Positions 1 to 6,755 of a stretch of 6,755 bases of DNA are shown here, piece by piece. The stretch covers positions 1-6,755 of IMG/VR virus record IMGVR_UViG_2711768074_000016. One strand, written 5' to 3'. The stretch comes from a virus. Lineage: Duplodnaviria; Heunggongvirae; Uroviricota; Caudoviricetes. Each line of letters opens with the position of its first letter. Position 1 is the first letter of the stretch. Under the pieces are notes generated by a model. It did not search any database, had not been told where the DNA came from, and saw nothing but the letters and a program-made list of their open reading frames with translations. The position numbers and the translations under genes were made by a program.

Positions 1-225
1 CTGTTCAGCGGCAAACCGATCCCCGACAACCGGGAAAACATCACTATTCGTCTGGATGATCACATTCAGTCTGTTCAGGGTAAAGAGAGCTATGAAGATG
101 AGATGTTCAGCATCAGATACTTTAAGAAGGGCTCCGCGCACATCACGTTCAGAAAACCGGAACTGGTTGATCGGCTAAATGACATCATTGCGAAGCATTA
201 TCCGGGGCAACTATCAGCCATCTGA
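1..225 (+). CDS. 3' end of a hypothetical protein (5'-truncated by the window edge); C-terminal 74 aa ...FRKPELVDRLNDIIAKHYPGQLSAI*
   Basis: Open frame 1 runs from the window edge to TGA at 223-225. It is convergent with the minus-strand operon and followed by a hairpin terminator. No family recognised from the fragment. Confidence 0.45.
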   Translation: MFSGKPIPDNRENITIRLDDHIQSVQGKESYEDEMFSIRYFKKGSAHITFRKPELVDRLNDIIAKHYPGQLSAI

Positions 226-243
226 GTCAGATGGAGAAAAAGC

Positions 244-267
244 TTACCTGACCCATTACCTGACCCA
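244..267. repeat. Perfect 12-bp tandem direct repeat (ttacctgaccca x2)
   Basis: Read directly: 244-255 equals 256-267. Lies between the stop of the plus-strand CDS and the terminator hairpin. Confidence 0.7.
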
Positions 268-282
268 ATTCAAAGGCAAAAG

Positions 283-323
283 AAAAAGGGTTAGCTGGTT
301 TATTAGCTAACCCTTTGTTGTAT
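283..323. terminator. Bidirectional intrinsic terminator between the convergent plus-strand gene and the tRNA
   Basis: 9-bp stem gggttagct (288-296) / agctaaccc (305-313) with an 8-nt loop. T-rich on the plus strand after the stem (tttgttgt) and on the minus strand after it (tttttctttt). Confidence 0.5.
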
Positions 324-324
324 A

Positions 325-400
325 TGGTGGCCCCTGCTGGACTTGAACCAGCGACCAAGCGATTATGAGTCGCTCGCTCTCACCACTGAGCTAAAGGGCC
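325..400 (-). tRNA. tRNA with anticodon CAU, tRNA-Ile2 (lysidine-type, ileX/ileZ-like) rather than tRNA-Met; 76 nt including encoded CCA
   Basis: The reverse complement folds as a canonical cloverleaf: acceptor GGCCCTT/AGGGGCC, D-stem GCTC/GAGC, anticodon stem AGCGA/TCGCT with loop CTCATAA, T-stem GCTGG/CCAGC with TTCAAGT loop, then ACCA. It is near-identical to E. coli ileX as I remember it, with a few substitutions typical of prophage copies. Confidence 0.88.
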
Positions 401-3006: not shown

Positions 3007-4056
3007 TTACCCGAGCACGCCGGTTGCAAAGGCGCGATCAAGAAAACGAAAAATTAAATCAATCTGGGAACCATGCTTTTCTTCAAATGCCAGCGGATCA
3101 GCATGAAGTTCGTTGTGATGCTCCCGGCACAACGGTAGCGTGAAAATATCGTGGGCTTTTGTCCCTATTCCGCCCTGACCATGACCAATCAGGTGATGGG
3201 GATCGTCGGCTGGCTTACCACAACACGCACACGGCTGTGTCTTTACCCAGCGCGTATATTTCTCATTTACCCAACGGCGACGTTTAGGTCGCTTCATTAA
3301 AGATTCCGGAGACTCCGGATCAACAGCAATGCTGACCACCGTCTTTTCCTGTGGCGGGTTCTGTTGCTGGTGGGCGTGAGGCAGCGGCGCAAGATTTTTT
3401 GTGCGCTGTTTCAGTATGCTGGTGGCGGTCTGCTCTCCCGGTACGATGTCGCTTTCACGGTACATTGAGCGGATTTTTTCCGCACGCAACCCCAGCGAAC
3501 GACGTAATACCGCTTCCGGTAGCGCGTCCGCCACCTGATTGCGGATCGCCCACCAGGATAATTCAGCCAGCGATAATTCCCGTTCCTGCGAGCCATTCAT
3601 TGCATGGCGTATGACGTCAATCATCCATGCAGACAGGTTTTGGTGAGCAAGTTGCCCGAGTGATTCGGAGGTCTGGTCGCGCAGCTGGTTGTCGCAGTGC
3701 CAGCACAACACCATTGCGCCGGTACCATAACGATGTATGACGGTTTCACTGTGATGGTAGTCACCATGAGGCCACTGGCAGGATTTGACATGACGCAGGA
3801 GCCAGTCAGACAGTGCGCCAGCGCCGCCAGCAGCACGAATCACACGCTCATCGCTGAAAAATGGCAGTAATGATTTATCCTCCGCCAGCGGCTGGCGAAC
3901 GGCAGGGACGACTCCGGACGGCAGACCGCGCATGCTTTTCGGTTCCGGCTCCACCAGCACCCTGCCGCAATGAAAAACCGGCAGTGATTCGCGACCGGGC
4001 TTAAGGACCACCAGCCCGAGTTCCGGTACCAGAACAGGTCGAAGTAATACCCGCAC
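3007..4056 (-). CDS. ydfU: DUF968-family prophage protein (YdfU-like), 349 aa, with a C-terminal Cys/His HNH-like motif
   Basis: Same length and N-terminus (MRVLLRPVLVPELG...) as the Qin prophage YdfU that I recall. C-terminal CACCGKPADDPHHL...CREHHNELH cluster. Tightly packed with both neighbours (1-nt gap to the upstream stop, 12-nt gap to rusA). Confidence 0.8.
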   Translation of the reverse strand: MRVLLRPVLVPELGLVVLKPGRESLPVFHCGRVLVEPEPKSMRGLPSGVVPAVRQPLAEDKSLLPFFSDERVIRAAGGAGALSDWLLRHVKSCQWPHGDYHHSETVIHRYGTGAMVLCWHCDNQLRDQTSESLGQLAHQNLSAWMIDVIRHAMNGSQERELSLAELSWWAIRNQVADALPEAVLRRSLGLRAEKIRSMYRESDIVPGEQTATSILKQRTKNLAPLPHAHQQQNPPQEKTVVSIAVDPESPESLMKRPKRRRWVNEKYTRWVKTQPCACCGKPADDPHHLIGHGQGGIGTKAHDIFTLPLCREHHNELHADPLAFEEKHGSQIDLIFRFLDRAFATGVLG

Positions 4057-4057
4057 G

Positions 4058-4336
4058 TTACCTCCAGATGCGTTGCTGGAATGTGCGGGACAGACGCGGT
4101 GGGCGTTCGGAGTAAGGAAGCCCGACGGAGATTATCCAGTGACGGTAGTCGAGGCTAAGGGCTTTTTTAACCTCGCATCCGCGCCTGCGGTAACACTGAA
4201 TGAGCCATTCGGCCTGTTCTTCAGTGCATGGGGGATGCTGGTACCAGTCTGACTTAAATGCGTGAGAATACCGCTCGTGCGTGTGGGCAAGAACGGTCGA
4301 ATTATCATGATTGTAATATTTTGCGTTGCGTGCCAT
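4058..4336 (-). CDS. Hypothetical prophage protein, 92 aa
   Basis: Strong RBS (GGAGG, 6-nt spacer before ATG at 4336). Stop immediately precedes the DUF968 start, suggesting translational coupling. No family recognised. Confidence 0.6.
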   Translation of the reverse strand: MARNAKYYNHDNSTVLAHTHERYSHAFKSDWYQHPPCTEEQAEWLIQCYRRRGCEVKKALSLDYRHWIISVGLPYSERPPRLSRTFQQRIWR

Positions 4337-4402: not shown

Positions 4403-4654
4403 TTATTCTTCTGAAAAAGCAGAAAAGCCAGCTTTTATTCCGATCTCTTTCAGTGCCTGTAATGAAGTGACAAACTCACCTTCGCGCAAGATAAATCCGT
4501 CTGTCACTCGACCATCCACAAAATTAATTAACGCAGCCCCATTCTTTCGCAAACACACAATGCGGTAATGACTAACAATATTTCCATTTTCAACGCACAC
4601 AGCATAGAGGCCATCTTCACAAAAAATTTTACGCAGTTCTTCGATGTTCATCAT
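4403..4654 (-). CDS. rem: Rem-like small prophage protein, 83 aa
   Basis: Same length, MMNIEELRK N-terminus and position (between hokD and the DUF968 gene) as the Qin prophage rem gene as I recall it. RBS GGAAGG with a 6-nt spacer. Confidence 0.65.
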   Translation of the reverse strand: MMNIEELRKIFCEDGLYAVCVENGNIVSHYRIVCLRKNGAALINFVDGRVTDGFILREGEFVTSLQALKEIGIKAGFSAFSEE

Positions 4655-4770: not shown

Positions 4771-4800
4771 AAAATAAAAACAAAAACCCGCCGAAGCGGG
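4771..4800 (-). terminator. Intrinsic terminator of the hok mRNA
   Basis: On the minus strand: stem cccgc/gcggg with a 4-nt loop followed by tttttgtttttatttt. About 70 nt downstream of the hok stop. Confidence 0.65.
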
Positions 4801-4870
4801 TTAAGTGCGGGTGCGTTGAGGATGCCTGACACATCAGCGGTGGCGAGGGATTTCTCCCCCGCCTGGTCTC

Positions 4871-5026
4871 TTACTCCTCAGGTTCGTAAGCTGTGAAGAC
4901 AGCGACCTCCGTCTGGCCGGTTCGGATTCGTACCTCGCAGAGGTCTTTCCTCGTTACCAGTGCCGTCACTATGACGGTTAAACAGATGACGATCAGGGCG
5001 ATTAACATCGCCTTTTGCTGCTTCAT
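4871..5026 (-). CDS. hokD: Hok-family type I toxin (HokD/RelF-like), 51 aa
   Basis: The translation MKQQKAMLIALIVICLTVIVTALVTRKDLCEVRIRTGQTEVAVFTAYEPEE matches HokD as I remember it. RBS AAGGAG upstream of ATG at 5026. Single transmembrane helix followed by a periplasmic tail. Confidence 0.85.
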   Translation of the reverse strand: MKQQKAMLIALIVICLTVIVTALVTRKDLCEVRIRTGQTEVAVFTAYEPEE

Positions 5027-5083
5027 AGCCTGCTTCTCCTTGCCTTTCGGCGCGTAAGAGGCTAACCTACGTTTGTGAAGCAT
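4871..5083 (-). CDS. mok-like reading frame: in-frame N-terminal extension of hok (70 aa) that gates hok translation
   Basis: ATG at 5083 with GAGG 8 nt upstream. The 19-aa extension MLHKRRLASYAPKGKEKQA parallels the MokC extension in K-12, which is likewise in frame with its hok. Confidence 0.45.
   Translation of the reverse strand: MLHKRRLASYAPKGKEKQAMKQQKAMLIALIVICLTVIVTALVTRKDLCEVRIRTGQTEVAVFTAYEPEE
5040..5068 (+). promoter_or_regulatory. Candidate promoter for a Sok-like antisense RNA (-35 TTGCCT, 17-bp spacer, -10 TAACCT)
   Basis: Hexamers read on the plus strand inside the mok/hok overlap, positioned so that a transcript would run antisense across the mok start codon and SD. Sequence pattern only. 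Confidence 0.25.
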
Positions 5084-5152
5084 AGATTGGGCCTCAGATT
5101 AATGTTAAGCGTCTTGCAGGACGCGTAATGTTAACTGGGGCTTTTCTCTGTC
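5075..5152 (+). ncRNA. Putative Sok-like antisense RNA complementary to the mok translation initiation region
   Basis: Inferred from the candidate promoter plus a downstream hairpin (gcgtc...gacgc at 5111-5126, enclosed by gcctcag/ctggggc) followed by ttttctc. Ends are not defined. Confidence 0.2.
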
Positions 5153-5237
5153 TGCCTTACGGTGGCATGCCCGAGGCAGACAGCCTCAAGCACCCGCAGC
5201 AATTCTACTTAACTCCCGTCACCTCGCCAATATAAAA

Positions 5238-5327
5238 TCAATCAGAAAGGCGATCCATAAGAACAATAGCAAGACAATAAATTGCCACTACAGCCGCAAT
5301 AGCCAGCGCGCATTTGAGAACCAGCAC
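5238..5327 (-). CDS. Possible small hydrophobic protein, 29 aa (VLVLKCALAIAAVVAIYCLAIVLMDRLSD, GTG start)
   Basis: Consensus AGGAGG Shine-Dalgarno 5 nt upstream of GTG at 5327. Single predicted transmembrane segment with a charged C-terminus. Starts ~70 nt downstream of the SIR2-like gene stop on the same strand. Below the ORF-track size cutoff; unverified. Confidence 0.25.
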   Translation of the reverse strand: MLVLKCALAIAAVVAIYCLAIVLMDRLSD

Positions 5328-5397
5328 GATAACCTCCTGTATTGGACGTACACCAGCTCTGATAAATATGAGGCTGCCTCTTTAACTTCGCATTGCG

Positions 5398-6429
5398 CTA
5401 CCAATCAATAAAATCAGTGATGTTATCCAACCTAATTACAGTAACTTCCCGTCTCAACTGGTTTTTCCAATATATCTCACGAGCGTTTTGTTCACCAGCA
5501 CCGCTCCACTCAATTACTCTTAAAGGCTTAGAGGTTAGGTAAGGTCGAATAAGCAGGTTAAGGTGAATATCGAGACCAGAGTAACCAAACAATATTATTT
5601 CTTCTGATTCAAATAATGCAAACTGCAAATAATCCCAGTACGTAGAAAGAACATTAGATGCTGCTATAACTGACGGTTTTCTTTTTATATGAGTTAACAC
5701 TATATGCTCACTAGGTTCATCTATGTCAAGAGTAAGTTGTGAGCGTGAAAGTTTTAAAACATTTTCATGCTGATTAATAAATAGTGGTGAACCATGCAAG
5801 TGCAAATAATAACCAAACCTACGATTGTATTTCCGTTCGAGCGCTGCAGAGGAAAATCCGTGGCTTAGCATCCCATCAACTAAAACCCCATCATACCCGT
5901 TGAATATATCATTATCTATGAATGAATTGTATAATAATTTGTCATAGTTTAATGTCGCGATATGTGAGTGTGTGTTCTTTACAAACTCCACAAGCGCATT
6001 TTCGAATCTTTGTGGCAAACCTTTATCGTAATTATGCAACCTGGTTGCAACTTTGTGAATATAAGTGGCGGTAATTTTGGGGAAGTTTAGTCCATCTTCA
6101 GTAAGCCAATGCACGTTCCCCTCTCCAATTTGAGCAAGAGCTTTACAATATGTGACAGCCTGGTGAAGGGTATCCAACTCATGTTCTCCTTCTGGTGGAC
6201 CTTGCCGCTGAAGACAACGCTCGATAAGTTGCTTGTGGATATCTTTTAAAAAATTGGGGCGATGCCAAATTTCTTCCAACGCTCTGTCTAAGGAGAAGTG
6301 AGCAGGATCTAAAGCCATACCGAGACCGTTGCCGAATATTATTAATTTTCTTGCCATATAGGGGGACTCATATTGGAATAACGCTGGATAGCGTCGCGCG
6401 ATACGCTTAAGTTTAGGATTAATAGACAT
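5398..6429 (-). CDS. Stand-alone SIR2-like domain protein (SIR2_2/ThsA-like fold), candidate NAD+-depleting antiphage defence effector, 343 aa
   Basis: The translation carries the four SIR2_2-type motifs in the correct order and spacing: a Rossmann glycine-rich loop LIIFGNGLG (res 29-37), TLNYDKLL (res ~158-166, putative catalytic Asn161), LHLHGS (putative catalytic His212, codon at 5794-5796) and ILFGYSGLD (res ~278-287). Compare ThsA: FAGAGLS, TTNYDRL, MHGD, LFVGFSFTD. The gene is AT-rich with many rare ATA and AGA/AGG codons. The start is uncertain: 6429 has a weak RBS and the in-frame ATG at 6357 is an alternative. Confidence 0.6.
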   Translation of the reverse strand: MSINPKLKRIARRYPALFQYESPYMARKLIIFGNGLGMALDPAHFSLDRALEEIWHRPNFLKDIHKQLIERCLQRQGPPEGEHELDTLHQAVTYCKALAQIGEGNVHWLTEDGLNFPKITATYIHKVATRLHNYDKGLPQRFENALVEFVKNTHSHIATLNYDKLLYNSFIDNDIFNGYDGVLVDGMLSHGFSSAALERKYNRRFGYYLHLHGSPLFINQHENVLKLSRSQLTLDIDEPSEHIVLTHIKRKPSVIAASNVLSTYWDYLQFALFESEEIILFGYSGLDIHLNLLIRPYLTSKPLRVIEWSGAGEQNAREIYWKNQLRREVTVIRLDNITDFIDW

Positions 6430-6651
6430 TCCGTTTGATTACTCTTGTTATTACAAACTTGCATGCAAAGAAGCCCAAGCTGTTAGGTAAACAGAGACCG
6501 CAGTGGCAAGATAATCTAGATATAGCCTATAAAATCCAACAACAAATAGCGGCCTGTTTTCTATGACTTTTCTTTTCCCTAAATATCGCTTATCTAATAA
6601 AATGCAATAATGTATTGCACAGTATTTAATGTGTATTAATATAGATAAGTA

Positions 6652-6755
6652 GGTGATGCTGCCAACTTACTGATTTAGTGTATGATGGTGTTTTTGAGGT
6701 GCTCCAGTGGCTTCTGTTTCTATCAGCTGTCCCTCCTGTTCAGCTACTGACGGGG
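6652..6755 (+). mobile_element. IS1 insertion sequence, left end (partial; continues beyond the window)
   Basis: The canonical IS1 left inverted repeat GGTGATGCTGCCAACTTACTGAT starts at 6652 and is followed by sequence identical to the IS1 5' region as I recall it. Confidence 0.9.
6707..6755 (+). CDS. insA: IS1 InsA, N-terminal fragment (3'-truncated by the window edge)
   Basis: GTG at 6707 followed by codons for ASVSISCPSCSATDG, the InsA N-terminus. Confidence 0.8.
   Translation, partial: MASVSISCPSCSATDG

Follow-up and report, generated by a model that had tools for sequence, protein, structure and literature searches.

An IS1 element upstream of a SIR2-like gene on a lambdoid prophage contig, with a candidate hybrid promoter at its junction

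The window, by which we mean the whole stretch of DNA analysed (6755 bp), is the complete draft contig CYGG01000125.1 of GCA_001284325.1 and ends inside an IS1 repeat. It carries a portion of a lambdoid prophage of the DicA/DicC (Qin-like) type, in which every prophage gene is on the minus strand. The features of the window are collected in Table 1. Between positions 324 and 6651 the window was 99.9% identical, with five differences, to prophages of three complete E. coli genomes, for example that of O111:H2 strain 12A.

Table 1. Positions of genes, sequence elements and predicted signals in the window
Feature	Position	Strand	Remarks
tRNA	325-400		
DNA methyltransferase	441-1499	minus	
DUF1133/Q-like gene	2072-2638	minus	
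RusA	2635-2994	minus	
DUF968	3007-4056	minus	
92-aa ORF	4058-4336	minus	
Rem	4403-4654	minus	
hokD with sok	sok 5021-5195	minus	sok, 116 bits
SIR2_2/DUF4917-type gene	5398-6357	minus	319 aa; longest ORF to 6429, 343 aa; RefSeq 'SIR2 family protein'
Retained SIR2 upstream region, cassette rather than backbone	6358-6651	minus	294 bp; from comparisons with loci L028 and L035
Weak candidate native promoter, TTGCAT-16-TATTTA	6607->6580	minus	below scan threshold; suggested by alignment
-10-like hexamer TATATT in target DNA	6638-6643	minus	16 nt from IS1 -35; 8 nt from junction
Predicted 9-bp target-site duplication copy (AGATAAGTA)	6643-6651		adjoins IS1 tip; predicted from the left flank only
IS1 left end (IRL side), cut by contig end	6652-6755	plus	104/104 identity to annotated IS1A/IS1B copies
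Outward -35-like hexamer TTGGCA in IS1 inverted repeat	6660-6665	minus	5/6; 8 nt from tip

Several smaller features of the prophage portion were recorded. The tRNA gene accounts for four of the five differences from strain 12A (positions 334, 342, 357 and 358). This tRNA has a CAT anticodon and was called Met by ARAGORN; in RefSeq relatives it is annotated as tRNA-Ile. The left end of the window (1-400) differs from the closest complete genomes, where two tRNA-Arg genes lie past this tRNA. Positions 1-225 instead belong to the 3' part of a DUF4942 gene on the plus strand, as in three other loci (L011-L013, 96.8% identity), and in those loci an IS1 is found about 1.6 kb past the DUF4942 gene. 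The single nonsynonymous difference from the closest genomes is RusA R45W (window 2862). The exact RusA R45W protein is on record in the contig of the window and in two unrelated short metagenome contigs only. Matches to the Rfam family isrK, below its gathering score of 50, were seen on the gene strand at 4781-4862 (24.9 bits) and 1972-2045 (19.8 bits), the former lying downstream of hokD and the latter of the Q-like gene.

The product of the SIR2-like gene matched the Pfam family SIR2_2 (PF13289) with 26.1 bits against a cut-off of 24.5, and its PADLOC matches were weak (Aga_SIR2, PDC-S21 and SIR2; E about 1e-6 to 1e-4). NCBIfam and PHROGs gave no match to the protein, and no relative of solved structure was found in the PDB by single-sequence or profile search. 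A set of 794 homologues, mostly of 319-323 aa, carries PF13289 and/or PF16263. The AlphaFold model was of moderate quality (pLDDT 64, pTM 0.69). When this model was compared with known structures using Foldseek, it was matched to the SIR2 (Rossmann-type) fold, the best match being the SIR2 protein of SIR2-HerA antiphage complexes (E 7e-8, TM 0.45-0.59), followed by FAM118B, the SPARSA SIR2 and sirtuins. The invariant columns of the family, G-N-G-L-G, L-N-Y-D and H-L-H-G-S, resemble what we take to be the NAD-site motifs of defence SIR2 proteins. On this evidence, from the Pfam match, the predicted fold and the motifs, the protein is best described as a putative SIR2-family enzyme without the partner that defines the two-component systems. 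DUF4917, a Pfam family matched by many of the homologues, also appears in a paper on a secreted Campylobacter jejuni sirtuin (PMC10421069). Should that sirtuin be related to DUF4917, SIR2 proteins of the DUF4917 type might conceivably serve some purpose besides phage defence.

Two start codons were considered for this gene. The ATG at 6357 is the RefSeq start, and the invariant columns of the family begin there. In 11 homologues, with identities as low as 71%, the 24-codon in-frame extension (6358-6429) is uninterrupted, with an R-Y-P-x-L-F pattern and an ATG in the same place; it contains a stop codon in Serratia and has no ATG in Klebsiella. These codons may encode an N-terminal extension peculiar to a subfamily, or they may form a conserved leader element. 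Position 6357 is the safer start and 6429 the alternative.

The IS1 end was located at base resolution. Position 6652 is the first base of the IS1 left inverted repeat (GGTGATGCTGCCAAC...), and the terminal inverted repeat beginning GGTGATGCTGCCAACTTACTGAT is present at the tip of the element. From this tip to the end of the contig, all 104 bases are identical to copies annotated as 'IS1-like element IS1A/IS1B family transposase' in three other loci (L003, L004 and L021); the sequences flanking these copies differ as far as that terminal base. The GTG of insA at 6707 is offset by 55 bases, as in the annotated copy of L003 (tip 5041, CDS 5096), and the IS1 genes point away from the SIR2-like gene. 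Furthermore, 21 IS-free loci share the 40 bases ending at 6651 and then all read TTGGTCTTATTTG... (TTGGTCTTATTTGATAAC...). Because these loci are identical to the window up to 6651 and diverge from it thereafter, the break lies exactly between 6651 and 6652. That it falls exactly on the IS1 tip favours a real transposition over an assembly chimera. A full IS1 is 768 bp long, with a right inverted repeat, the insAB' frameshift transposase and a direct target-site duplication. The element usually duplicates 9 bp of its target, and the predicted copy of this duplication in the window adjoins the tip.

The position assigned to the left end in the initial annotation, 6652, was borne out by the identity from the tip and by the breakpoint in the IS-free loci. 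The distance given there, about 220 bp to the SIR2-like gene, was likewise confirmed, being 222 bp to the ATG of the longest ORF and 294 bp to the RefSeq ATG. The spacer had also been described as very AT-rich, and the G+C content was indeed 32.9% for 6430-6651 and 35% for 6358-6651, compared with 48.3% for the whole window and 51% for the backbone genes.

In the IS-free loci, the genes upstream of the SIR2-like gene are, in order, a co-directional DUF977 gene, a gene for a 321-aa O-like protein, YdaT, Cro/DicC and a divergent DicA-like repressor. DUF977 matched PHROG 142, 'Ren-like exclusion protein', and the 321-aa protein matched O-like replication initiators, which places the SIR2-like gene just after the replication module. 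The IS1 was inserted 146 bp past the stop codon of the DUF977 gene, in an AT-rich intergenic region of 441 bp. As judged from these sequences, the SIR2-like gene appears to be a cassette that occupies a variable slot for cargo, with the replication module (O-like, Ren-like DUF977) on one side and hokD and the nin/Q region on the other. In a close relative that lacks the SIR2-like gene (L028, 12560-16131), the slot between DUF977 and hokD holds a hypothetical gene, a SAM methyltransferase, a second hypothetical gene and a SMEK-domain protein. Some relatives have a second variable slot, between hokD and rem, containing genes for a 216-aa protein and a 367-aa HTH/Peptidase_M78 protein (L005 11653-13387).

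The extent of the cassette was estimated from two comparisons. Relative to L028, the segment specific to the SIR2-like gene corresponds to about 9610-10977 of the IS-free locus L006, that is, the gene with about 390 bp upstream and 17 bp downstream. In L035, where a protein 88% identical is encoded in another chromosomal context, the upstream homology begins at about L006 9650-9668. Given these boundaries, the IS1 site, between 9706 and 9707 of L006, lies inside gene-linked sequence, 40-55 bp from its distal edge. The retained spacer has no ORF longer than 43 aa and no annotated gene; none of its small ORFs is credible, and nothing in Rfam matched it at E <= 1.

The possibility was considered in the initial annotation that the insertion had removed or truncated an upstream partner gene. 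The comparisons gave no support to it. In the IS-free loci the next gene upstream is the Ren-like DUF977, 146 bp beyond the insertion point, and DUF977 is a backbone gene: its 3' end was found in 3274 of the 5426 complete E. coli genomes and the SIR2 cassette in 46, and in L028 DUF977 adjoins different cargo. The insertion is intergenic, and judged from the sequence it truncates no gene itself. Moreover, homologues of the SIR2-like protein have unrelated neighbours. In Aeromonas the gene for the homologue of about 320 aa follows sucD; in Klebsiella it has a LysR regulator on one side and an AAA_28 gene on the other, and in Serratia it comes after the gene for a 680-aa protein; on the contig of the Pseudoduganella-type homologue it comes after HATPase_c_3 and 249-aa proteins. 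The homologue of L035 is beside a TacA/TacT pair and that of L039 near rpoD and mug. The neighbourhoods compared, from E. coli and other genera, contained no conserved partner (HerA, a TIR protein or a short Argonaute), and the protein has no fused sensor domain.

The insertion was rare in the collections searched. Of 5426 complete E. coli genomes, 46 have the junction of DUF977, spacer and SIR2-like gene (701 bp), and it is uninterrupted in all 46, with at least 99% identity in 30 and an allele at about 83% identity in 16. The junction of IS1 with the SIR2 spacer was absent from the 5426 complete E. coli genomes, from the GTDB species representatives and from JGI metagenome contigs, and the predicted right junction of IS1 was not found in the GTDB species-representative genomes. 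Two partial matches to the junction (H31 and H35, with 74-81% coverage and about 90% identity) were rejected as IS1 copies elsewhere, the AT-rich flanks of which aligned by chance. The insertion is thus known from one draft contig, indexed under two samples, and from these sequences it looks like a recent, lineage-restricted event.

Other interruptions were seen near the gene. In the scaffolded assembly OU349844.1, a gap of 100 N (L008 9627-9726) ends 20 bp from the site at which IS1 is inserted in the window, and before the gap is an unrelated lambda-like region with a Lambda_CIII-type gene. A further repeat or IS in this stretch upstream of the SIR2-like gene may have broken the contig there. 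An IS481/IS3-type element (rve integrase core) lies between the SIR2-like gene and hokD in many pig ETEC/Stx2e strains and in other genomes (L002 11120-12193; L010-L013 and L017, about 11270-12430; hits H5-H23). With such elements on the hokD side and IS1 upstream, both flanks of the SIR2-like gene are recurrent IS targets.

The far side of the IS1 is beyond the contig end, where the element may be truncated or the prophage may have undergone a deletion or inversion. A simple insertion would put the IS1 right end (...GTTGGAGTCATTACC) before AGATAAGTATTGGTCTTATTTG, followed by the DUF977 gene. An IS1-associated rearrangement was weighed, namely a deletion of the left part of the prophage, an inversion, or a composite IS1 transposon of which this copy would be one end and the nin region and the SIR2-like gene the cargo. 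IS1 is known to cause adjacent deletions (PMC9330008), and the IS1 copy past DUF4942 in L011-L013 has the same orientation, so that direct repeats could bracket about 10 kb if the source of the window shares that copy. One IS1 end is in the window, and the left end of the contig lies in the DUF4942 gene. This left end shows no IS, however, and its identity to L011-L013 is no higher than 96.8%. In other genera the cassette was without IS1 among the called neighbours. The related proposal of the initial annotation, that the insertion marks IS-mediated mobilisation of the cargo, found no support, since IS1 was on this side in none of the other cassette copies examined. A rearrangement or mobilisation is therefore regarded as highly unlikely.

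The promoters that might serve the SIR2-like gene were examined by a sigma-70 consensus scan of 5300-6755. There were 9 matches compared with 4.2 expected, consensus matches being common in AT-rich DNA. In the IS-free locus L001, the best match on the SIR2 strand was TTGACA-18-AAAAAT (12428->12399), 71-100 bp beyond the insertion point, so that in the window it is separated from the SIR2-like gene by IS1. The -35 of this match is identical in the allele that has diverged by 17%, whereas its AAAAAT -10 is not kept there, and the whole match is outside the homology common to the cassette in the other context (L035). The initial annotation placed the native promoter, as probable, in the spacer next to the gene. 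In the retained native spacer there was no other match of at least 9/12 on the SIR2 strand, the only strong one in 6358-6651 being the hybrid at the IS1 flank described below.

Phylogenetic footprinting of the SIR2 upstream region gave no clear conserved sigma-70 consensus and one weak candidate. The identity of the upstream region was 73-77% as compared with 81-83% at third codon positions, indicating that the leader is without extra constraint overall. The weak candidate (Table 1) is similar in three diverged alleles, with forms such as TTGAAT-16-TATTTG and TTGAAC-17-TATTTT.

If TTGACA-18-AAAAAT, read-through from the early operon, or both provide the true promoter, a polar IS1 would cut the gene off from it and would lower the expression of a costly NAD-degrading gene. 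The position of the best native consensus, upstream of the insertion point with its conserved -35, agrees with such silencing, as do the recurrence of other IS elements beside the gene and the decrease in osmB expression after an upstream IS1 insertion (PMC8764528). On the other hand, the candidate -10 is not conserved, the site is outside the homology shared with the cassette elsewhere, and the predicted hybrid promoter would compensate for the loss. The SIR2 ORF is moreover intact in the window and identical to the IS-free copies. Silencing is considered very unlikely.

The first match listed in the scan was TTGGCA-16-TATATT, on the SIR2 strand, with a score of 10/12 that was level with one intragenic match. 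Its -35 is contributed by the IS1 inverted repeat and its -10 by the target DNA. The insertion would create this hybrid promoter because the IS1 -35 is 8 nt from the tip and TATATT is 8 nt from the junction; the IS-free locus has no promoter match at the corresponding place. To put this arrangement in numbers, IS1 was inserted in silico in the same orientation at each position of the 441-bp intergenic region. The -35 was paired with a 5/6 -10 at 16-18 nt in only 3 of 440 cases (0.7%), a figure computed after the hybrid promoter had already been seen. All three positions use the same TATATT, and when a 4/6 -10 was accepted the fraction rose to 7.7%. TATATT reads TATATC or GATATC in the diverged alleles and is for this reason taken as a non-conserved element. 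This, the retained weak native candidate and the leader's lack of extra constraint speak against a working hybrid promoter.

The mechanism itself has precedents. PMC8764528, which cites Prentki et al. 1986, describes how the IS1 inverted repeat, with its outward -35, gives rise to hybrid promoters. The same paper reports that the outcome of an IS1 insertion depends on spacing: afaA was up about 7 log2 (E. coli ST131), osmB was down and ugd was unchanged. IS1 is also listed among the fusion-promoter elements in PMC9330008, with an IS1 upstream of acrEF in Salmonella. For the exact -35 hexamer of IS1, a search of the literature gave no usable source beyond the general statement in PMC8764528. 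An effect of IS1 on expression by the known hybrid-promoter mechanism is plausible on these grounds, as far as it can be read from the sequence.

A near-neutral insertion was also weighed. IS1 favours AT-rich DNA, the native promoter may lie in the retained 294 bp and continue to drive the SIR2-like gene, and the hybrid consensus would then be coincidental. The insertion site, at 33-35% G+C, fits this reading. About 290 of the approximately 335 bp of gene-linked upstream sequence are retained, including the weak three-allele candidate, and the ugd transcript stayed at the same level when IS1 lay upstream of that gene (PMC8764528). Furthermore, an insertion unique to one contig is what would be expected if it were recent and unselected. 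Against this, the retained native spacer has no match of 9/12 or better on the SIR2 strand, and the hybrid match equals the best of the region and needs one of the three qualifying positions in 440. A neutral insertion is possible but, on balance, unlikely.

The reading that we prefer, with a probability of roughly 0.6, is that a strain-specific IS1 lies in the upstream region of the SIR2 cassette and that transcription of the SIR2-like gene is driven or supplemented by an IS1-target fusion promoter. The cassette has a single, SIR2-like gene, and the IS1 moved into the AT-rich DNA upstream of it without itself destroying a gene. The 441-bp intergenic region would thereby have been split, the distal 146 bp being moved at least one IS length away and the proximal 294 bp staying with the SIR2-like gene. 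The distal part contains the best native consensus promoter and would receive any read-through from the early-right operon. The hybrid promoter, of the type described by Prentki in 1986, would then read into the SIR2-like gene and uncouple it from the early transcription of the prophage, with a predicted transcript leader of about 270 nt. The sequences show the insertion, its exact site and its uniqueness, the backbone character of DUF977, the absence of a conserved partner, and the occurrence and rarity of the hybrid consensus. We infer the activity of the hybrid promoter, a block of upstream transcription by IS1, the completeness of this IS1 copy and a simple insertion on its far side.

The insertion is an ordinary strain-specific polymorphism, and events of its kind are already known. 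If the hybrid promoter is active, it would be a natural case of an IS altering the expression of a prophage SIR2-type gene, and IS-free controls at 99.9% identity exist, such as O111:H2 strain 12A. If it is inactive, the insertion is one of very many IS1 polymorphisms in E. coli and matters only for annotation, in that it explains where the contig breaks and bears on the choice of gene start and on the lack of a partner gene. It is distinctly unlikely that the IS1 was selected because a SIR2 NADase-type gene, weakly expressed or tied to early transcription, was made constitutive by the hybrid promoter. Had such selection occurred, an IS would have rewired a candidate immune gene, in analogy to the activation of resistance genes by IS elements. 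Fusion promoters made by IS elements are well documented for antibiotic-resistance and adhesin genes; we know of none for a defence-type gene.

The locus can be compared with four known systems. The SIR2_2 match, the predicted SIR2-HerA-like fold and the position in a prophage cargo slot are shared with the defence SIR2 proteins (SIR2-HerA, SPARSA SIR2-APAZ, ThsA and DSR). In contrast to those systems, the protein described here, with a putative anti-phage role, is a stand-alone one of about 320 aa, without a HerA, Argonaute, TIR or SLOG partner or domain. As in the lambdoid cargo (moron) slot after ren, a variable, AT-rich, bounded insert lies between a Ren-like gene and nin, and the cargo differs among relatives; whereas a moron has its own promoter, that of the SIR2 cassette is a candidate only. 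The IS1 agrees with IS1A/IS1B of E. coli and Shigella in its first 104 bases, its IRL tip, its insA offset and its AT-rich target, although just the left end is visible in the window. Finally, the known IS1 hybrid promoters (Prentki, Teter, Chandler and Galas 1986; afaA; acrEF) serve resistance or adhesin genes, whereas the target here is a prophage SIR2-like gene; as a further difference, about 270 nt separate the predicted hybrid start from the start codon. The predicted arrangement is nevertheless the same as in those promoters, with an IS1 -35 placed 16-18 nt from a -10 in the target DNA and directed towards the gene.
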